A stretch of 64,000 nucleotides of DNA, from assembly GCA_965223415.1 (NCBI GenBank), contig OZ245002.1:4000001-4064000 (forward strand). Direction: 5' to 3'. The stretch is from Myxococcota bacterium (lineage in GTDB: Bacteria; Myxococcota_A; UBA9160; UBA6930). The notes under the pieces were generated by a model, which saw only the letters and a program-made list of their open reading frames with translations, was not told the DNA's origin and made no database searches. The translations under genes were made by a program, and so were the position numbers. The first letter of the stretch is position 1; each line of letters starts with the position of its first letter. Positions 9,754-39,602 of this stretch are shown in pieces.

Positions 9754-10934
9754 GGCAGGGAGCTCTCCGTTCCGGGTTCGAACAGGGCCGACTCGATGCG
9801 GCCCAGGGTGTCGAGATCGTGAACGTCGCGGGGCAGCTGCGGCACGCGTCGCACGAAGGCGTCCGCCTTGGCTGCCCAGCGCAGGAGCGGTGCCGTGGCT
9901 TCCGCATCCCTGTGCACGCGACGAGCGTAGCTGCCGACACAGTGCCGCGCCGTCCGCGCCGCCGCGCCGACCTGCGCCGGATCGAGACCACGCTCGGCGA
10001 GCGCGCGCCCCAGCGCCTCCCAGGCCGCGGGCGCCGCGGGCTCGAACGCCTCGAGCTCCGGGTCGAGGTGCAGGCGGTTCAGGATCACGCCCCGCGTCGC
10101 CGCGCCGAGCCCGTCGAGGCGCTGGGCCAGAGCGACGGCCTGGTCGACCTGTCCCCGTCCCGCGCCTGCCGCGAGCACGAAGGCGGTGGTGCCGCCAAAG
10201 AGCAGCTCGCGCACGTGATCGGCCCGGGCGCGGAAGCCCTCGGACAGCTCTTCGAACAGCAGCAGGAACTCCGACAGGTCCTCGAGGAAGGCCATGCCCG
10301 ACACCCGCTCGAGCAGGCGGAAGAGCGGCTCGGTGCCCTTCTGGAAGAGGCGCAGCCCGAAGCGGCCGGCACTCATCGCCGGGTGCACCAGGTGGCGGGC
10401 GATGCGGCTGTCGACCAGGCCGACCAGGCGCTCCGGCGCCTCCAGGAAATCGAGCGCGTGCTGGGACGGCGGCGTGTCGAGCACCACGACGTCGAAGCCG
10501 CCGGCGGCCACCAGCTCGTCGACCTTCTCCATGGCCGAGTACTCGCTGCTGCCCGCCAGGGCGTCGGAGACGTGCTGATAGATGGGGTTGGAGAAGATGC
10601 GATCGCGGGTGGCGTCGTCCCGTGCGAAGCGGTGCACGAGATCGTCGAAGGTGCGTTTCGTGTCGAGCATCATGGCGGAGAGCGAGCCCGGCGCGAGATC
10701 CAGCCGGGCGAGGATCTCCGCCGGCAGGGCCTCCGGCTCCGGTCCGAGGCGCGGGAGGCCCATGGCGTCGGCCAGGCGCTTGGCGGGATCGATGGTCAGC
10801 ACGAGGGCGCGGGCGCCGCGCCGGGCCGCGCCCAGGGCGAGGGCGGCGGAGAGGGTCGTCTTGCCGACACCCCCGGAGCCGACGCAGGCGACGATCGGGT
10901 GCTCCTCGAGCAGGCGGGCGGGGGTGGCGCTCAC
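9750..10934 (-). CDS. ArsA/Get3-like P-loop ATPase (second of pair)
   Basis: 'CVGSGGVGKTT', 'TIDPAKRLADA' and 'LDTPPS'. GTG start overlaps the upstream stop (GTGA). Confidence 0.85.
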   Translation of the reverse strand: MSATPARLLEEHPIVACVGSGGVGKTTLSAALALGAARRGARALVLTIDPAKRLADAMGLPRLGPEPEALPAEILARLDLAPGSLSAMMLDTKRTFDDLVHRFARDDATRDRIFSNPIYQHVSDALAGSSEYSAMEKVDELVAAGGFDVVVLDTPPSQHALDFLEAPERLVGLVDSRIARHLVHPAMSAGRFGLRLFQKGTEPLFRLLERVSGMAFLEDLSEFLLLFEELSEGFRARADHVRELLFGGTTAFVLAAGAGRGQVDQAVALAQRLDGLGAATRGVILNRLHLDPELEAFEPAAPAAWEALGRALAERGLDPAQVGAAARTARHCVGSYARRVHRDAEATAPLLRWAAKADAFVRRVPQLPRDVHDLDTLGRIESALFEPGTESSLP

Positions 10935-18401: not shown

Positions 18402-18564
18402 GGTCTCCCTTCCCATTGTGCCAGGCTGTCCCAGAACAGCCTCCCCCGTCATGGGAAGTGACCGGCCCCACGCGTCGGGTGTCAAAGAATGTCACCCCAC
18501 AGCGAAAAAAAGTGCGGGGTTACCCCCGCGGGGGAGGGGTTCAGGGGCCGGGGTGGGTGGCGGG

Positions 18565-19086
18565 CTAGAGATCGCCGTCTCGAAGGCGGCTGCGGAACCG
18601 GAAGGCGCCGGCCGGCCCCTGGCCGCGGGGCTCCTGGCGCGGCGGGTTCGGCTCCGGCGCCGCACGCCCCGGATCCTCGGCGACCAGGAGGGCGCCCGCC
18701 GGCGTCCGCACTAGCCTCCACAGCTCGATCCTCCCCGAGCCGCCGCCGGCCGCCAGCCGGGTGCGCTCCTCGAACCGCTCGGCGACCAGCAGGGCCCGCG
18801 GGCGCAGGGAAGGGTCCAGCCGGCGTTCGGGGGCGAGCTGGGCCCAGTCCGCGATCCGCGGCGCGAGCCAGGAGAGCTCGCCCACCAGGGCGGCCCAGGT
18901 CTCGAGATCGCGGCCCGGGGCTGCCGGCTGCACCAGTCCCACGCGGCCCTCGGGATCCCGCACGACGTAGGCGATGCGGCCGGCGCCGCCGAGCAGGTTC
19001 CGGGCCACCACCTCGAGGGGCGTGGGCAGCGCAAGCAGGGCCGGGCGCAGGTCGTCCGTCGGCGGGGCCAGGGGCACGGCGCTCAA
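18565..19086 (-). CDS. Hypothetical protein, possibly a degenerate PD-(D/E)xK (NucS-like) fold
   Basis: TTGA coupling to the upstream gene. 'GRIAYVVRDPEGRVGLVQ...RALLVAERF...IELWR' follows the NucS-like pattern but lacks the acidic catalytic residues. Confidence 0.55.
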   Translation of the reverse strand: MSAVPLAPPTDDLRPALLALPTPLEVVARNLLGGAGRIAYVVRDPEGRVGLVQPAAPGRDLETWAALVGELSWLAPRIADWAQLAPERRLDPSLRPRALLVAERFEERTRLAAGGGSGRIELWRLVRTPAGALLVAEDPGRAAPEPNPPRQEPRGQGPAGAFRFRSRLRDGDL

Positions 19087-19835
19087 TGCAGGTCGTCGCG
19101 CAGGAGCAGGGCGACGTCGCGCAGGGCCCGCGCCGCCCGCGTGCAGCCGAAGCCCTCGCCGCGGGCGGGACCCTCGACCAGGGACCGGGCCAGCTCGAGC
19201 TCGTCGACCAGCAGGCCGTAGCTCGTGAGCGGGCGCTCGAAACGGGCGGCGAAGAGCTCCGCCAGCCCGTCGAACACGCCCCGGGCCTCGGCCAGGGTCT
19301 CGGCACCGCGCACCGTCACGCCTACCTGGGCGCGGGGAGCGGCGCTCAGCACTCGTTCGCAGAGCTCGAGGAACTCGCGCCGATCCGCGTCGGAGGCGCC
19401 GGCCACCAGCCAGCAGCGGGAGAAGAGCTGCGTGTGGGCGTCGTTCCAGGTGCGGTCCGACGGCACGTGGACCAGCACCACCGACCCGCTCTCCTGCGGG
19501 AGGGTGGCCGCCGCGTCGGCGGCGGCGCCGAGGAGCGGCCCGACGTCGCCGGCGGGGAGCGGCACCCAGGTCGGCGCAAAGGCCTCGCAGGCGAGGTCCA
19601 GCCACGCCGAGTGCTCGGGCTGCGGCTCGGGCGCCAGGAGGGTCGGCGCCCGTCCGAGGGCGCGCATCTCGGCCGCCAGGCTCCACAGGAGGGCGGTGCG
19701 GATCGGGTCCCGGGGATGGAGCGGCGCGGCCACGATCGGGCAGGGCTCCGCCTTCCCCGGTTCCTCTCTCCGGCCCGGGGGCTGGGAGGCGTCGTCCAGG
19801 AAGTAGTGGAGGACCTCGCCGAGCTCGCGGGCCAC
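19083..19835 (-). CDS. Hypothetical protein, possibly a MinD/FlhG-like fold lacking Walker A
   Basis: The C-terminus 'YGLLVDELELARSLVEG...RAARALRDVALLL' resembles the FlhG/MinD tail. No GxGK motif. Start is 19835 or 19853. Confidence 0.55.
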   Translation of the reverse strand: MARELGEVLHYFLDDASQPPGRREEPGKAEPCPIVAAPLHPRDPIRTALLWSLAAEMRALGRAPTLLAPEPQPEHSAWLDLACEAFAPTWVPLPAGDVGPLLGAAADAAATLPQESGSVVLVHVPSDRTWNDAHTQLFSRCWLVAGASDADRREFLELCERVLSAAPRAQVGVTVRGAETLAEARGVFDGLAELFAARFERPLTSYGLLVDELELARSLVEGPARGEGFGCTRAARALRDVALLLRDDLH

Positions 19836-19911
19836 GGCTAGTCCCGATCCCACATCGAAGGGGAGCGCCGGCCCAGAGCCACGGCACGTCGAGAGCGATG
19901 CCGGATCACGG

Positions 19912-21000
19912 TCAGCTTACGACCAGGACGGAGTTTCGGCCTCCCACCGGGCCCGGCACGGCGTTGGGGTTGTCCGGATCCTCTCGCCACTCGCCGTCGA
20001 CCACGTAGCGGTAATGGTAGGTGCCGGGCGGCAGGTTCAGGATCTTCGTCCAGACCCGCTCGGCCCCCTCTGCCTGGACGAGGGAACGCACGTCCTTGTC
20101 CGGGACCCAGCCGTTGAAATCGCCGGCGATGCGCACGTCAGTGGCCCCCGGATCGCGGTAGCGCACGACCACCTCGCGGCCGCTGCCCGCCGCCTCCGGG
20201 CGAAGCTCCTCGCGCAGGGCGGGAGGCGGTTCGGCCAGGGACAGCTCCAGGGCGAGGGCCGCGTAGTCGCGGGTGCCGTTGGCCGTGCGCGCGAAGGACC
20301 CGATGGGCTGGCCGCGGCGGGCGGCCTCGCGCAGCTTGACGTTCGAGCGGATCACCGTGTCGAAGCAGAGGTCGCCGAACAACGAACGGATCTCCGCCAG
20401 CGTGTCCCGGGCGTAGCGGGTACGCCCGTCGTAGAGGGTGGGCAGGATGCGCACCGAGAGCTCGTGGCCGATGCGGTCGGAGAGCAGCGCGATCGTCTCC
20501 AGCAGCTTCTGCACGCCGTGGATGGCGAAGTCGCTGGTCTCCAGCGGGACGAGCACCTCCCCCGCGGCGCGCAACGCGTTGAAGGTGAGTACGCCCACGT
20601 TCGGCGGGCAGTCGATCAGCACGAAGTCGTAGTCGTCCCGGACGCTGGCCAGCGCGGCTTCCAGCCGCTCGGTGCGGCGCTCGGCCCGCTCGGCGGTGAG
20701 CTTCTGCTCGAGGGCCGAGAGCACGATGCCCGAGGGCGCCAGGTGGAGCGCGTCGCTCCAGGCCTGGATCACGTCCGCAAGGCGACCGGCGGCCGGCGAG
20801 CCCACGGGCTCCACCAGCACCTCGTACAGGTTCTCGTCCAGCGCCTCGGGGTCGTAGCCCAGGGCCAGAGTGGCGTGGGCCTGGGGGTCCATGTCGACCA
20901 CCAGCACCCGGGCGTCGGCGGCCAGCGCCCCCGCCAGGTTCACGGCAGTGGTGGTCTTCCCGCAACCGCCCTTCTGGTTGACGATGGCGACGATGCGCAT
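19912..21000 (-). CDS. ParA-family ATPase fused to C-terminal CBM48/AMPK-beta-type glycogen-binding domain
   Basis: Deviant Walker A 'NQKGGCGKTT', 'DMDPQ', 'IDCPP' and 'IRSNVKLREA'. C-terminus 'VRIAGDFNGW...LPPGTYHYRYVVDGEWREDPDNP...NSVL'. Confidence 0.9.
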   Translation of the reverse strand: MRIVAIVNQKGGCGKTTTAVNLAGALAADARVLVVDMDPQAHATLALGYDPEALDENLYEVLVEPVGSPAAGRLADVIQAWSDALHLAPSGIVLSALEQKLTAERAERRTERLEAALASVRDDYDFVLIDCPPNVGVLTFNALRAAGEVLVPLETSDFAIHGVQKLLETIALLSDRIGHELSVRILPTLYDGRTRYARDTLAEIRSLFGDLCFDTVIRSNVKLREAARRGQPIGSFARTANGTRDYAALALELSLAEPPPALREELRPEAAGSGREVVVRYRDPGATDVRIAGDFNGWVPDKDVRSLVQAEGAERVWTKILNLPPGTYHYRYVVDGEWREDPDNPNAVPGPVGGRNSVLVVS

Positions 21001-21208
21001 GAGCGGTCACCTCCTGACGAGGGCACTCGGAGGAAGGACCGGGGATGGGATCGGACCGGGGAGTCGCTGGGGCTGAAAGTAAACGCGACTGTGTAGGCCG
21101 TCAACTCCGAAACCCCTGGAAGATCGCCGCCTTCGGGGGTTTTCTGCGAATGGGGTTGGAGCTTCGCCCGGGTTCGCCGCCTCTTGGGCCGTGCGGTAGC
21201 TTGGCTCG

Positions 21209-22357
21209 GTGGCGGACTCCAAGGCCAAGCCCCGAGATACCCGGACCTGGGTCGAAGATCCCCAGGGCCGGCGCCCCTTCATGCGGGGCATCATGATCCA
21301 CTCCCTGATGTCCCGGGGTGCCGACTTCGATGACGCCTACCGGGTGGCGTCGCAGATTCGCGACCAGCTGCGGGGCACCGAGCGGATCGGCCGGGACGAG
21401 CTGGCCGCCCTGATCGAGGATCACTTCCCCGGCAGTCTCGAGGAGCGGCCCCTGGCGATCGCGCCCGAGATCCAGGTCACCGGTGGGCGGGAGCCGACAC
21501 CGTTCTCCAAGGGCGTGCTCTCGGGCTCGCTCCTCGCCGCCGCCATCGAGCCCGAGCAGGCCCACGACGTGGGCCGGGAGATCGAGGCCGCGTTGGTGGC
21601 CCGCGGTGAGCCCTTCGTCGAGCGGGCCGAGATCCGCGCCCTGGCCGCCGAGACCCTCTCCAGGCGGCTCGGCGCGCGGGTCGCCGGGCGCTACCTGGCC
21701 TGGCGTTCGTTCCTGGATTCGGAGCGCCCCCTGATCCTGCTGCTGGCCGGGACCGCCGGCGTGGGCAAGAGCTCCCTGGCCCAGGCCGTCGCCCACCGGC
21801 TGGGCATCGCCGGCGTCACCTCGACGGACGCCATTCGCCAGGTGATGCGCATCATGCTCGGGCCCGAGCTCGTACCGGCGATCCACGCCTCCTCCTACGA
21901 CGCCCACAAGGTCGTCGTGCGCTCGGAGCAGGCCGACGATCCGGTGATCGACGCCTTCCGCGCCCAGGCCGCGACGGTCTCCGTCGGCGCCCGGGCGATG
22001 ATCGAGCGCGCCATCGAGGAGGGCACGAACCTGATCCTGGACGGCGTGGCCGTGCTCCCGGACCTCATCGACGTGTCCCAGTACGGCGATCGCGCCCATG
22101 TGGTCTTCCTCACCGTCGCCACGCTCGAAGAAAAGGCCTTCAGCAAGCGATTCGAGACGCGGGCGCGGGATGCCGCCGCGCGGCCGCCGCATCGCTACCT
22201 CGGCAACCTCGCGGCCATCCTGCGGATCCAGGACCACATCCTGGAGCTGGCGGAACAGCAGGACGTGCCGATCGTCGACAACGTCGACTTCGACGCCTCG
22301 GTGCGCTCGATCCTGCGTCACGTCACCGAGAGCCTCCGCAAGCAGGTGGGCTCGTGA
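21209..22357 (+). CDS. 2-phosphoglycerate kinase-like protein with two N-terminal ATP-cone-like domains
   Basis: 'PFMRGIMIHSL' and 'PFSKGVLSGSL' cone starts. P-loop GTAGVGKS, 'STDAIRQVMR', 'HASSY', 'ERAIEEG' and 'ILRIQDHI'. Confidence 0.75.
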   Translation: MADSKAKPRDTRTWVEDPQGRRPFMRGIMIHSLMSRGADFDDAYRVASQIRDQLRGTERIGRDELAALIEDHFPGSLEERPLAIAPEIQVTGGREPTPFSKGVLSGSLLAAAIEPEQAHDVGREIEAALVARGEPFVERAEIRALAAETLSRRLGARVAGRYLAWRSFLDSERPLILLLAGTAGVGKSSLAQAVAHRLGIAGVTSTDAIRQVMRIMLGPELVPAIHASSYDAHKVVVRSEQADDPVIDAFRAQAATVSVGARAMIERAIEEGTNLILDGVAVLPDLIDVSQYGDRAHVVFLTVATLEEKAFSKRFETRARDAAARPPHRYLGNLAAILRIQDHILELAEQQDVPIVDNVDFDASVRSILRHVTESLRKQVGS

Positions 22358-23184: not shown

Positions 23185-23265
23185 GCGGTCCGCGTCGGGC
23201 GCCGGGACGCGGTGCGCGCCGGGCAGAGGCGGCAGGCGCTACGTTCGCGGGCGCACGGAGGAAGC

Positions 23266-24681
23266 ATGCAAGCCCCCTCGCTCCGGACCCTCGGTGAGCT
23301 GCGCCAGGCCGGCCACGCCCACCGCACGCTGCGCCAGGAGATCCACGCGAACCTGCTCGACAAGCTCGGCAAGGGGGATCCCCTCTTCCCGGGCATCGTC
23401 GGCTACGACGACACGGTGATCCCCGCGGTCGAGAACGCGCTGCTCTGCGGTCACGACCTCATCTTCCTGGGCGAGCGCGGGCAGGCCAAGTCGCGGATGA
23501 TCCGCCAGATGATCGGTCTCCTCGACGAGTGGATGCCGATCGTGGCCGGCAGCGAGATCCACGACGACCCCTTCGCGCCGGTCTCGGCCTTGGCGCGGCA
23601 GCAGGTGGCGGAGCACGGCGACGCCACTGAGATCGCCTGGGTGCACCGGGACGATCGCTACGTGGAGAAGCTCGCCACTCCGGACGTCTCGATCGCCGAC
23701 CTGATCGGCGACGTCGACCCGATCAAGGTCGCCCAGGGACGCACCCTCGGCGACGAGCTGACCATCCACTTCGGCCTCCTGCCGCGCACGAACCGCGGGA
23801 TCTTCTGCATCAACGAGCTGCCGGACCTGACGGAGAAGGTGCAGGTGGGTCTCTTCAACGTGATGCAGGAGCGCGACGTCCAGGTGAAGGGCTACAGCGT
23901 GCGCCTGCCCCTCGACGTGCTGGTCGTGGCCAGCGCCAACCCGGAGGACTACACGAGCCGCGGGCGCATCATCACGCCGCTGAAGGACCGCTATGCGGCC
24001 CAGGTGCGCACCCACTACCCGCAGAACCGCGAGCTCGAGCTGGGCGTGGTGCACCAGGAAGCGCGGGTGCCCCGGGTGGAAGGCCTCACCGTCGTCGTGC
24101 CCCCCTTCATGGAGGAGATCGTCGGCGAGCTCACCTTCCAGGCGCGCTCGAGCCCCGACGTGAACCAGACCTCCGGGGTCTCGGTGCGCATGTCCATCGC
24201 CAACTACGAGACCCTGGTGGCCAACGCCCTGCGCCGCGCGATCCGGTTGGGGGAGAAGGAGGCGGTTCCGCGCATCTGCGACCTCGAGGCGCTGGTCACC
24301 TCGACCGCCGGCAAGCTCGAGCTCGAGTACGCCGGAGAGGACCGCACCGAGACGCAGGTGGTCGAGGACCTGATGCGACGGGCGACCCGGCTCGTGTTCG
24401 ACGCCCGGGTGCCCCTCGAGGGCATGGCGCCGGTGATCGAGTCCTTCAACCAGGGATGGAACGTCGAGGTGTCCGCCGAGATGCCGGCGGGGGACTACCT
24501 GGAAGGTCTCGACGAGATCCAGGGCCTGCGGGAGGCCGCCTCCCAGCTCGCCGGCGGCGATTCCCCGGAGCGCCTGGCCAGCGCCATCGAGCTGCTGCTC
24601 GAGGGCCTCCACCTGCAGAACCGCCTCAATAAGTCGAGCACCGAAGGCGGGGCGCGCTACGGCGCCTCCGGGGGCCCATGA
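23266..24681 (+). CDS. Mg-chelatase/MoxR-like AAA+ ATPase
   Basis: 'GERGQAKS', 'INELPDL' and 'ANPEDYTSRGRIITPLKDR'. GGAGG RBS. Confidence 0.85.
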   Translation: MQAPSLRTLGELRQAGHAHRTLRQEIHANLLDKLGKGDPLFPGIVGYDDTVIPAVENALLCGHDLIFLGERGQAKSRMIRQMIGLLDEWMPIVAGSEIHDDPFAPVSALARQQVAEHGDATEIAWVHRDDRYVEKLATPDVSIADLIGDVDPIKVAQGRTLGDELTIHFGLLPRTNRGIFCINELPDLTEKVQVGLFNVMQERDVQVKGYSVRLPLDVLVVASANPEDYTSRGRIITPLKDRYAAQVRTHYPQNRELELGVVHQEARVPRVEGLTVVVPPFMEEIVGELTFQARSSPDVNQTSGVSVRMSIANYETLVANALRRAIRLGEKEAVPRICDLEALVTSTAGKLELEYAGEDRTETQVVEDLMRRATRLVFDARVPLEGMAPVIESFNQGWNVEVSAEMPAGDYLEGLDEIQGLREAASQLAGGDSPERLASAIELLLEGLHLQNRLNKSSTEGGARYGASGGP

Positions 24682-26306
24682 GGATCCACCGCTACAGCCG
24701 GTGGGACGGGAGCCAGCAGCAGTTCACTCTCGACGCCCGGCAGGCGCTCGACGCCCTCTCGGAGCTGCTCATGGAGGGGCTCGACGTGGACGAGGCCCTC
24801 GAGTGGATGCGCCGGGGCGGCTTCGACCTGGCGGGCATGAATTTCCGCGTGATGGGCGTGGAGGAGATGATCCAGGAGCTCCGCGAGCAGGTGCAGGAGC
24901 TCTTCGACCAGTACCGGCTGGACGAGGCGACCCGGGAGCTGGCCCAGAAGCTCGACGACATCCTCGACCGGGAGGAGCGCGCCCAACGCGACGCCCACGG
25001 GATGGAGTCCCAGGCGATGAACGAGTTCCTCCAGCGTCGCCACGGGGAGCACGAGTCCCTCTCGGACGCCATCGAGGCCTTCCGCGACCACGCGTTCGAG
25101 GACGACGAGGCCGGCGAGGAGTACCGCGAGCTGCTCGAGGAGCTGGATCGCCTGCGCGAGCTCGAGGACTTCCAGCGCGAGCACGGCGAGAAGTTCCGGG
25201 GCGAGGAGGCCGCCGACTACGACACGGCCCAGGAGATCCGCGAGCGCATCCAGGCGCTCCAGCAGATGGCCCGCGACCTGGCCGAAGGCAACTTCCAGCA
25301 GGTCTCCATGGAGGAGCTGCGCGAGATGCTCTCGGAGGACGGCATGCAGTCCTTCGTGATGCTCCGGGACATGGAGCAGACGCTGCAGGACGAGGGCTTC
25401 CTGCGCCGGGCCGACGACGGCATGGAGCTCACGCCCCGGGCGATCCGCCGCATCGGCGCCCAGGCCCTGGCCTCCGTCTACAGCAAGCTGCGCAGCGGGC
25501 GCTCCGGAAGCCACGAGACGATGCACCGGGGCATCGCCACGCCGCGCCCGGACGAGACCCGGCCCTGGCAGTTCGGCGACGCTCTTGACGTGCACGTGGT
25601 GCGCACGGTGCTGAACGGCGTGAAGCGCGCCGTCGCCGAGGGGCGGCCGACCGCGCCGGTGCAGCTTGGCGTGGACGATCTCGAGGTGCGCGAGTGCGAC
25701 TTCAGCACGCAGACCACCACCGTGCTCCTCCTCGACATGAGCTGGTCCATGTCCTGGGCGGGGCGCTTCCCGGCGGCGAAGCGGGTCGCCCTGGCCCTCG
25801 ACCACCTGATCCGCACCCAGTATCCGCGCGACGACTTCTTCGTGGTGGGCTTCTCGACCCGGGCGAAGGAGCTTCCGATCAAGGAGCTGCCCCTCGCCCG
25901 CTGGGACATGGGCGATCCCTTCACGAACCTCCAGGAGGGGCTCCTGGTCGCGGAACGGTTGATCGGCCAGCACCCGAGCCCGAGCCCGAGCCCGCAGATC
26001 CTGGTGATCACCGACGGCCAGCCCACCGCCTACTTCGAGGGCCGCGAGCTGCGGGTGGAGTGGCCGATGGGCTTCGGCGGCGTCTCGCCCCACGCGGTGG
26101 CGGAGACCCTCAAGACCGTTCGCCGGGTGACCCGTCGGGGGATCACGATCAACACCTTCATGCTCGACGACGCGCCGGAGCTGGTGGGCTTCGTCGAACG
26201 CATGACCGAGATCAACAAGGGGCGCGCCTTCTTCACGATGCCGAACCAGCTGGGCAGCTTCCTCACCGTCGACTACCTGGCCCAGAAGCGGAGTCGGTTC
26301 CGCTGA
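24678..26306 (+). CDS. VWA domain protein, partner of the upstream AAA+ ATPase
   Basis: 'YSRWDG' N-terminus, MIDAS 'DMSWSM', 'TNLQEG' and 'ITDGQP'. ATGA overlap. Confidence 0.88.
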   Translation: MRIHRYSRWDGSQQQFTLDARQALDALSELLMEGLDVDEALEWMRRGGFDLAGMNFRVMGVEEMIQELREQVQELFDQYRLDEATRELAQKLDDILDREERAQRDAHGMESQAMNEFLQRRHGEHESLSDAIEAFRDHAFEDDEAGEEYRELLEELDRLRELEDFQREHGEKFRGEEAADYDTAQEIRERIQALQQMARDLAEGNFQQVSMEELREMLSEDGMQSFVMLRDMEQTLQDEGFLRRADDGMELTPRAIRRIGAQALASVYSKLRSGRSGSHETMHRGIATPRPDETRPWQFGDALDVHVVRTVLNGVKRAVAEGRPTAPVQLGVDDLEVRECDFSTQTTTVLLLDMSWSMSWAGRFPAAKRVALALDHLIRTQYPRDDFFVVGFSTRAKELPIKELPLARWDMGDPFTNLQEGLLVAERLIGQHPSPSPSPQILVITDGQPTAYFEGRELRVEWPMGFGGVSPHAVAETLKTVRRVTRRGITINTFMLDDAPELVGFVERMTEINKGRAFFTMPNQLGSFLTVDYLAQKRSRFR

Positions 26307-37997: not shown

Positions 37998-39602
37998 CTA
38001 GTCGTCACCGCAGTCACTCATCGCTCCCTCGACCAAGAGTGTGTTCCGCTCGGTCTCCGTAAGCAGGTTCTGCTCGACGAAGCTCTGGAGCGTCCTCGTC
38101 AGGCTGGACACGTACTGGCCGTGGTTCTTCCAACCATTGGCGGTTCCGAAGGGCCCGCTACAGGGAACGAGCTGGTGCACGGAGCAGCCCGTCGCGTCCG
38201 TGACTTCCGAGAGCGGCGTGAAGAGGCAGGCGTCGGCCACGTCTGGCACCTCGTCGGCATCGGCGTCTGTGTCGCACGCGTCGCCGAGGCCGTCGCCATC
38301 AAAGTCCGCCTGCTCGGAGTTGGGGTCGTTCGGGCAGTTGTCGACGTCGTTGGCCACACCGTCGCCGTCCAGATCGGCGTCGCACGGATCTCCCCGCCCG
38401 TCACCGTCCGTGTCCGCCTGGTCGGGGTTCGGGATCAGGGGACAGTTGTCGGCATCGTCGGCGAGACCGTCCCCGTCGTCGTCCGCGTCGCAGGCGTCGC
38501 CCGTCCCGTCGCCGTCCGAATCGTCCTGGCTCGAGTTGGCGGTCAACGGACAGTTGTCCTGATCGTTCGACACACCGTCGCCGTCGGTGTCTGCATCACA
38601 AACGTCGCCGATGGTATCACCATCCAAGTCGCTCTGATCCGGGTTTCCATCCAAGGGGCAATTGTCGGAGACGTCGTCCACACCGTCCGCGTCGTCGTCG
38701 GGATCGCACGCGTCACCGAGGCCGTCCTGGTCCAGGTCCTCCTGGCCGGGGTTCGGAAGCAGCGGGCAGTTGTCCACGATATCGAGCACGCCGTCGTTGT
38801 CGCTATCCGAATCGCAGACGTCGCCGGCGCCGTCGCCATCCGAGTCCAGCTGGTTCGGATTCGCCGCGAATGGGCAGTTGTCCGACAGATCCAGCACACC
38901 GTCCCCGTCGTCGTCCGGGTCGCAGACGTCGCCTGCACCATCCGCATCGTTGTCGTTCTGATCGGGGTTCGCGTCGACCGGGCAGTTGTCGCTGGCATCC
39001 GGCGAACCGTCGTTGTCGTCATCCGGGTCGCAGGCATCGCCCAGCGCGTCGCCGTCGAGGTTGGACTGCGTCGGATTCGGAGTCTGGGGACAGTTGTCGT
39101 CGACATCCAGGACGCCGTCGAGGTCGGAATCGCCGTCTGTGATGGAGAAGGAGACCCCCGGCAAAGCGGTCGGATCTTCAAGGCCGAAGAAGTGGACGTC
39201 CTCCCAGCTCACGGTGGCGGAGCCGGTCTGGACCGCCTGGAACGTGACGACGGCGACCTGGAGCTGGTCCGGAACGAGCGCGATGACTCCCGCGACCTGG
39301 CTGAAGACGTCCTGCGTATCCGCGCTGCCAGTGAGCGGGCCGATCACCCAGGCAATGGCGCCGCCGAAGCTCGTATGCGGGGTCTGCGTCGCGCTCGTGA
39401 CGGTGACGAGCGCCCCTGGAAACCGGATCCCACCGAAGACAAGGGTGGATGCGGCACCTTCGGGATCTCCCACGATCGTGAGGGTGACCGTCTCCCCGAC
39501 CGTGTAGGAGCTCTTGTCCGTCGTCATCGACAGCGTGGCCGCTGCTGCAGTCCCGCAGAGCGCCAGGGGGGCCAGAAGCGAGAGCAAGAGTCGCCGGGCC
39601 AT
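37998..39602 (-). CDS. Secreted thrombospondin type-3 repeat protein with N-terminal beta-sandwich (cohesin-like) domain
   Basis: Signal peptide 'MARRLLLSLLAPLALCGTAAA'. Eight 36-aa units DxDxDG..DNCP..N..Q.D.DxDxxGDxCD. C-terminal 'WKNHGQYVS'. Confidence 0.9.
   Translation of the reverse strand: MARRLLLSLLAPLALCGTAAAATLSMTTDKSSYTVGETVTLTIVGDPEGAASTLVFGGIRFPGALVTVTSATQTPHTSFGGAIAWVIGPLTGSADTQDVFSQVAGVIALVPDQLQVAVVTFQAVQTGSATVSWEDVHFFGLEDPTALPGVSFSITDGDSDLDGVLDVDDNCPQTPNPTQSNLDGDALGDACDPDDDNDGSPDASDNCPVDANPDQNDNDADGAGDVCDPDDDGDGVLDLSDNCPFAANPNQLDSDGDGAGDVCDSDSDNDGVLDIVDNCPLLPNPGQEDLDQDGLGDACDPDDDADGVDDVSDNCPLDGNPDQSDLDGDTIGDVCDADTDGDGVSNDQDNCPLTANSSQDDSDGDGTGDACDADDDGDGLADDADNCPLIPNPDQADTDGDGRGDPCDADLDGDGVANDVDNCPNDPNSEQADFDGDGLGDACDTDADADEVPDVADACLFTPLSEVTDATGCSVHQLVPCSGPFGTANGWKNHGQYVSSLTRTLQSFVEQNLLTETERNTLLVEGAMSDCGDD

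Follow-up and report, generated by a model that had tools for sequence, protein, structure and literature searches.

In a 64,000-nucleotide stretch of a Myxococcota bacterium genome (the window: GenBank assembly GCA_965223415.1, contig OZ245002.1, positions 4,000,001 to 4,064,000), the gene parA-CBM encodes a real and intact fusion of a ParA/Soj-type ATPase with a carbohydrate-binding module (CBM) of the AMPK-beta type, and it stands outside the ParABS systems. It is not a solitary ParA, since it heads an operon with two conserved partner genes directly downstream. It behaves as a core gene of the whole class and retains its sugar site in genomes devoid of glycogen genes; in the present organism, classical glycogen is an unlikely ligand. 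The explanation tentatively preferred here, to which somewhat less than an even chance is given, is that of a ParA-type module with housekeeping duties in tethering or positioning, whose lectin domain would recognise a carbohydrate-bearing ligand.

Bacteria position their cellular components chiefly by means of ParA/MinD ATPases. For the present fusion, glycogen positioning and antiviral sensing compete as explanations, and the data fit neither cleanly; a decision would either extend the ParA cargoes by a new kind or reveal how a lectin domain serves in defence.

The fusion protein and its ATPase domain

A preliminary description of this DNA, made from its letters and translations, had claimed a ParA ATPase joined to an AMPK-beta/CBM48 domain without a neighbouring parB, and had suggested a hidden Markov model (HMM) scan for AAA_31, CbiA and AMPK1_CBM. 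All three Pfam families match the protein. Residues 1-182 correspond to AAA_31 (E 4.7e-49, 167 bits), with a further match to CbiA (E 9.7e-21), and residues 277-348 to AMPK1_CBM (E 2.4e-13; 50.5 bits here and 54.5 bits when the genome was searched, the cut-off being 26.8), whereas the CBM_48 match is weak and lies under its cut-off (19.9 bits against 22.4). The claimed fusion was therefore borne out, and every motif that had been quoted for it is present.

The solved chains nearest to the ATPase half are the ParA family protein 8ray (E 1.4e-41) and then Soj 6iub and 1wcv. The features that define the ParA/Soj-type class, namely the deviant Walker A with its signature lysine, the DxD motif and the Walker B aspartate, are all found. 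In an alignment of 28 sequences covering several phyla, K10-G-G-C-G-K-T-T17, D36/D38-P-Q and D130/P132/P133 are invariant. The basic K222 (in NVKL), also conserved, aligns with the NVRL of Soj/ParA, a position to which we presume a functional role in those proteins. When the full ParA-CBM was modelled with AlphaFold2 (AF2) from the single sequence, the predicted local distance difference test (pLDDT) was 35.9, too low for the model to be used.

Chromosomal ParA/Soj acting with ParB (ParABS) thus provides the closest ATPase domain, including the deviant Walker A and its signature lysine. The differences are that no ParB gene or parS site adjoins parA-CBM, that a CBM has been added and that the partner is a dead FlhG/MinD-like protein. 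In fact, the only ParB_N match of the genome (C1:2015258) adjoins the best AAA_31 gene, about 2 Mb from parA-CBM, in agreement with the absence of a neighbouring parB noticed earlier.

The carbohydrate-binding domain

Among solved structures, the C-terminal 98 amino acids (aa) match the CBMs of AMPK beta-1 and beta-2 best (E 1.5e-8), and then SEX4 and LSF1, whose starch-binding modules also belong to CBM48. In a phmmer alignment with the AMPK beta-1 CBM (1z0n/1z0m), W298, R331, W338 and N356 coincide with the two tryptophans, the lysine and the asparagine that contact cyclodextrin in that protein. The module differs from all these relatives in being fused to ParA, and in occurring mostly in genomes without recognisable glycogen genes.

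The 28-sequence alignment shows F295-N-x-W298, Y328, Y330, D335 and W338 to be invariant. Of the 33 genomes of the class that carry the fusion, every one preserves W298, R331 and W338, and 27 preserve N356, the latter comprising 11 of the 14 with glycogen markers and 16 of the 19 without them. An invariant lectin site argues for a real, conserved ligand. Moreover, the CBM evolves at the pace of the ATPase domain in this lineage, the median identities being 71.3% (65 loci) and 72.2% (67 loci), respectively. In one orthologue (G142:C18:60091-61155), a single TAG interrupts the reading frame and three conserved positions of the CBM are altered, which might result from decay of the gene or from a mistake in sequencing.

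Partner genes and operon

Partner 1, the gene directly following parA-CBM, gave no match in Pfam, NCBIfam or PADLOC. Its closest solved relatives are FlhG/FleN (4rz2, 8p53) and MinD (1hyq), which a profile of 58 orthologues matched in the PDB with E-values of 5.9e-19 for FlhG 4rz2, 8e-16 for FleN and 1.5e-7 for MinD. The kinship with FlhG/MinD comes from this PDB profile search, since a direct hhalign comparison of the partner 1 and ParA-CBM profiles yielded a probability of 8.9%. Partner 1 differs from these relatives in having no flagellar context and no Walker A, the GKGGVGK loop being replaced by non-P-loop residues; to judge by this loss, it is probably unable to bind nucleotide in the usual way.

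The best conserved part of partner 1 is formed by its first dozen residues, of which related forms occur across phyla: PRDLxDVLHYF in Myxococcota, LGRGLEEVSHFF in the Desulfobacterota-type loci and KLKRGLKDxSxLF in Omnitrophota. The R/K-G/D-L core of this peptide resembles what we assume to be the ParA-activating N-terminus of ParB, and FlhG also uses an N-terminal activator peptide. A complex prediction for ParA-CBM with partner 1 scored 0.00 against a mark of 0.32, a result that counts neither for nor against binding.

Partner 2 could be placed by its fold alone, since its sequence matched nothing in Pfam and nothing in the PDB either (best E there 0.046). Its AF2 model (pLDDT 87.3) has NucS 2vld as best Foldseek match (E 1.5e-3), and the VIA-align superposition on the NucS/EndoMS nuclease domain gave Z 11.5 and a root-mean-square deviation of 2.5 Å over 105 residues, with other proteins of the restriction-endonuclease fold ranking after NucS. 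Unlike NucS/EndoMS, partner 2 has neither the N-terminal domain nor the catalytic ExK. In fact, of the PD-(D/E)xK motif nothing but the first Asp survives in the family consensus, and the copy in the window lacks even this residue. A search with the family profile retrieved 1354 cluster representatives at E <= 1e-3.

The TTG start of partner 2 overlaps the TGA stop of partner 1 in the DNA (TTGA), which suggests that both are translationally coupled, and in Planctomycetota a single protein of 484-534 aa downstream of ParA-CBM aligns by hhalign with partner 1 (94.7%) in its first part and with partner 2 (56%) after it, a fusion suggesting that the two work together. A terminator-like hairpin with a T-run follows partner 2; as the pattern scan found one such site against 0.8 expected, it is the position and not the count that suggests a function. 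No Rfam family was found in the window at the gathering threshold.

The short terminal peptides of the partners, which are invariant and rich in aromatic residues, bear on another explanation, by which the CBM-like domain would act independently of sugar as a protein-binding or autoregulatory module, for instance by docking a partner peptide. The CBM of AMPK beta likewise packs against the kinase domain, and the site residues are kept here in genomes without glycogen genes. Nevertheless, this is very unlikely, given that the same residues are invariant in Omnitrophota loci without an adjoining homologue of partner 1, which make up 11 of the 20 checked. On the same grounds the partner peptides were set aside as a general ligand of the CBM, although the partners could be encoded elsewhere in those genomes.

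Distribution and gene order

Both domains were present in 120 of 120 homologues among the matches listed (73-100% identity). Relatives were encoded in 516 stretches found by a genome scan, and the 80 best of these were analysed. These comprised 67 loci from one uncultured Myxococcota lineage (57-87% identity) and 13 with 40-47% identity, assigned to Thermodesulfobacteriota, Desulfomonilia, Syntrophaceae, Omnitrophota, Planctomycetota, Bacteriovoracaceae or simply to 'bacterium' or 'Deltaproteobacteria'. A metagenome scan with an Omnitrophota query gave 3 loci.

Gene order is conserved among the 67 Myxococcota loci. Genes for a VWA protein, a MoxR-like AAA ATPase, an M48 peptidase and a 2-phosphoglycerate-kinase-like protein lie on one side, and on the other ParA-CBM is followed by partner 1, partner 2, an extracytoplasmic function (ECF) sigma factor, a hydrolase and DsbA. 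Partner 1 is directly downstream in 61 of these loci, and partner 2 occupies its place in 50. At the level of the class, 34 of 38 genomes contain a ParA orthologue and 33 the full-length fusion, always as a single copy. The identity of the fusion tracks kinship, with 88% within the genus, 63-73% within the family and 60-63% for the most distant family. Over 65-67 loci, the median identities are 72.1% for the flanking MoxR-like AAA gene, 55% for the ECF sigma factor and 33% for both partners; the rank correlations of identity between ParA and the flanking genes are weak (rho 0.1-0.4) and uninformative on vertical descent.

In the Omnitrophota, a partner-1 homologue is found directly downstream in 9 of the 20 loci checked. 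In these nine (L143-L151), a gene for a CT398-like zinc-ribbon protein was noted in eight and mraZ in seven.

Glycogen genes in the genomes with the fusion

The interpretation first attached to the gene was that the CBM holds particles of glycogen or another alpha-glucan while ParA spaces or partitions them over the nucleoid. The call of the CBM has stood, together with the aligned positions of the sugar site; the glycogen pathway, by contrast, is missing in most carriers of this lineage. The genome of the window itself (one contig, 97.3% complete) contains neither glgA (top score 42 bits, cut-off 328) nor glgC (31 against 425), and has no match to the phosphorylase family PF00343, no complete GH13 and no glgB-type CBM_48, parA-CBM being its sole CBM_48 match. 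The only GH13 match of this genome is a fragment (model positions 1-175 of 446) in a 277-aa ORF (L091:4522-5355, G000:C1:656521-657354), which overlaps a major facilitator superfamily (MFS)-transporter-like frame and adjoins AlgX-like and MBOAT genes.

The suggested check for co-occurrence of the fusion with glg genes was made on a sample of 201 genomes of the phylum, with glgA counted at E <= 1e-30 and a strong CBM match at E <= 1e-25. Strong CBM matches occurred in 33 genomes, all within the class to which the window belongs and each with one full-length copy of the fusion, and glgA in 153 of the 201. The gene glgA was found in only 7 of the 33 fusion genomes compared with 146 of the 168 without the fusion, a difference on which no statistical claim is placed since the genomes are related to each other. 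Among the 33, glgB was above its cut-off in 10 and a full-length GH57 was present in 4, with one further match of 70 bits adjoining glgA; none of glgA, glgB and full GH57 was found in 19, all of them 91-98% complete. In addition, no glycogen gene was seen within about 5 kb in 10 scanned loci of other phyla or in the syntenic Myxococcota loci. As the fusion is common without the pathway, an outcome that the preliminary description had itself named as a refutation, the glycogen reading cannot be general in this lineage.

Granule positioning as an explanation of the fusion is therefore quite unlikely, although some observations are in its favour. The CBM is of the AMPK type with the aligned sugar-site positions kept, and at least one of the three markers is present in the other 14 genomes of the class. 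Outside this lineage, 15 fusion genomes of which the completeness is not known contained glgA in 7 cases and glgB above its cut-off in 2. Of the 20 Omnitrophota loci, 3 have GH57 on the same strand at a position two genes upstream; no other glycogen gene was seen in the remaining 17.

The published description and the immune reading

The architecture has recently been described by comparative genomics in a preprint as a 'CBM-containing system', the branch ConB5, with a variant in which two inactive proteins, a second ParA and a restriction endonuclease (REase), come after ParA-CBM (bioRxiv 10.64898/2026.10.19.760177, 22 Oct 2026). Going by the preprint passages on this branch, parA-CBM is a further member of the system: the same layout was found here, with an inactive ParA-like gene and an inactive gene of the REase fold after a ParA carrying a C-terminal AMPK1_CBM, and this picture was reached independently. 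Apart from the preprint, no report of ParA-CBM or of ParA-driven glycogen placement was found in full-text searches of the literature. The statement in the preliminary description that no characterised system of this kind was known thus holds for experiments, while the architecture itself had already been reported.

In the preprint (bioRxiv 10.64898/2026.10.19.760177), an immune sensor is predicted from the CBM's rapid divergence and its sporadic distribution: the CBM would detect an infection-related carbohydrate, ParA would multimerise to contain the invader and the dead REase would sense DNA. Such a role is unlikely for the module studied here. It is consistent with the placing of ConB5 among immunity-associated branches in the preprint passages, with the second inactive ParA and inactive REase, with the fast evolution of the partners (a median of 33% compared with 72% for ParA) and with the patchy spread across phyla. 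Nevertheless, the rapid CBM divergence given there as an attribute of ConB5 is not seen in this lineage, where CBM and ATPase are conserved to the same degree; in the class, nearly every genome has the module, as a single copy and in syntenic position. A further difference is the MerR gene upstream in relatives, of which the preprint passages on ConB5 make no mention. Moreover, the full fusion is kept in at least 52 of 101 small Omnitrophota genomes, and the preprint passages on ConB5 present no experiment.

Nor were signals of defence or mobility seen around the genes. No defence genes flank the module, and 15 proteins, among them the three of the module, gave no credible match and two marginal ones with PADLOC-DB 2.0.0, a library that dates from 2023 and hence precedes the preprint; the module proteins themselves showed only a 16-bit P-loop match (E 9.6e-4). 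A tblastn search with the CBM through 72,556 plasmid and 50,697 phage records found nothing.

A proposed housekeeping module for tethering or positioning

The module is chromosomal and vertically inherited, and comprises three genes here and four in relatives, merR being missing in the window. Its near-universal single-copy presence, an identity that tracks kinship, the slowly evolving CBM and the absence of a defence or mobile signal fit a core function better than a defence island. The analysis establishes which domains are present, the operon, the pattern of conservation and how glycogen genes are distributed, while nucleoid binding, activation by a peptide, the contacts among subunits, the ligand and any cellular function are inferences. 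ParA-CBM would be a dimerising ATPase of the chromosomal Soj/ParA kind, probably nucleoid-bound in its ATP form. Partner 1 would present its conserved basic/hydrophobic N-terminal peptide and probably control ATP turnover, and the catalytically dead, NucS-like partner 2 would be the third subunit. The CBM, as a slowly evolving module of lectin type, would tie the ATPase to a carbohydrate-bearing ligand.

McdA/McdB, acting on carboxysomes, and PomXYZ, acting at the division site, are orphan ParA cargo systems in which an adaptor binds the cargo. The likeness lies in a ParA outside ParABS accompanied by fast-evolving adaptors which have an activating peptide at one terminus; the difference is that the putative cargo-binding domain is here built into the ATPase.

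Several points weigh against the housekeeping reading. The explanation names no cargo and is to that extent incomplete, and fast partners (33% identity) together with a patchy spread across phyla are the signs of a conflict system according to the preprint passages. The CBM is not indispensable, since two of the 67 loci (L060 and L074), with partners 1 and 2 still downstream, and the genome G072 (G072:C15:34480-35244) have a ParA orthologue without a detectable CBM, 73-77% identical over residues 1-246 or 1-259. An alpha-glucan ligand is possible in view of the GH57 neighbours in Omnitrophota, the 14 genomes with any of glgA, glgB and full GH57, and the intact sugar site. Furthermore, the absence of genes was judged on metagenome-assembled genomes (MAGs) 91-100% complete by HMM searches that may miss divergent enzymes. 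The genome of the window also contains a 1055-aa ORF (L096:3886-7053, G000:C1:1137885-1141052) with no PDB relative, whose sole Pfam match is partial and GH57-like (46 bits, covering positions 39-173 of the 291 in the model). Comparable partial matches were seen in 7 further genomes of the class, including 4 of the 19 without markers.

Within the same line of thought, it may be proposed that the module organises or senses a cytoplasmic, carbohydrate-bearing target other than classical glycogen, for example a storage glycan that has escaped recognition, a glycoconjugate, or DNA modified with sugar and kept between the DNA-binding ParA and the dead nuclease. The proposal follows from the invariance of the lectin site in the 19 genomes without a recognisable glycogen synthase or branching enzyme, and in this specific form is rather improbable. 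If true, it would mean a new class of ParA cargo and a hidden sugar biology in these bacteria.

Features of the window and neighbouring genes

Table 1. Positions in the window of the parA-CBM operon, its domains and adjoining elements.
Feature	Position	Strand	Description
parA-CBM	19912..21000	-	362-aa ORF; ParA/Soj-type ATPase with AMPK-beta-type carbohydrate-binding module
ParA ATPase domain	20236..21000	-	Residues 1-255; deviant Walker A K10GGCGKTT17, D36xD38, Walker B D130
CBM48/AMPK1_CBM domain	19915..20187	-	Residues 272-362; W298, R331, W338, N356
Partner 1	19083..19853	-	P-loop-less FlhG/FleN/MinD-like; conserved N-terminal peptide; likely start GTG at 19835
Partner 2	18565..19086	-	NucS-like restriction-endonuclease fold without catalytic ExK; conserved C-terminal FRTGL-type peptide
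Terminator-like hairpin and T-run	18505..18529	-	3' of partner 2, before ECF sigma gene; pattern scan
Gap upstream of parA-CBM	21001..21208		208 bp to divergent 2-phosphoglycerate-kinase-like gene; merR of relatives missing

Upstream of parA-CBM, most of the 67 Myxococcota loci have a wider gap than the window, and in all 15 such loci tested a MerR_1 gene was found directly upstream. A 95-aa ORF in the window had no Pfam match; a MerR homologue, 39% identical, is encoded about 467 kb away in the same genome (G000:C1:4487988-4488392). The divergent gene beyond the gap (21209-22357, plus strand) codes for an ATP-cone and P-loop kinase protein and is so placed in 61 of the 67 loci; in NCBIfam it comes closest to 2-phosphoglycerate kinase (E 6e-91), its 305 bits staying under the cut-off of 343. 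Further on, positions 23212-26306 of the plus strand hold the MoxR-like AAA gene and then the VWA gene. No neighbour of the module is better conserved than the former (median 72%), and the latter reaches 64%.

Elsewhere in the window, a weak AAA_31 match of 32.6 bits lies at 10455-10877 on the minus strand within an open frame of 740 aa, which may encode an ATPase of the tyrosine-autokinase type. The G+C content of the window is about 72%, and falls to 0.65-0.69 between positions 38001 and 56000 as against about 0.72 elsewhere.

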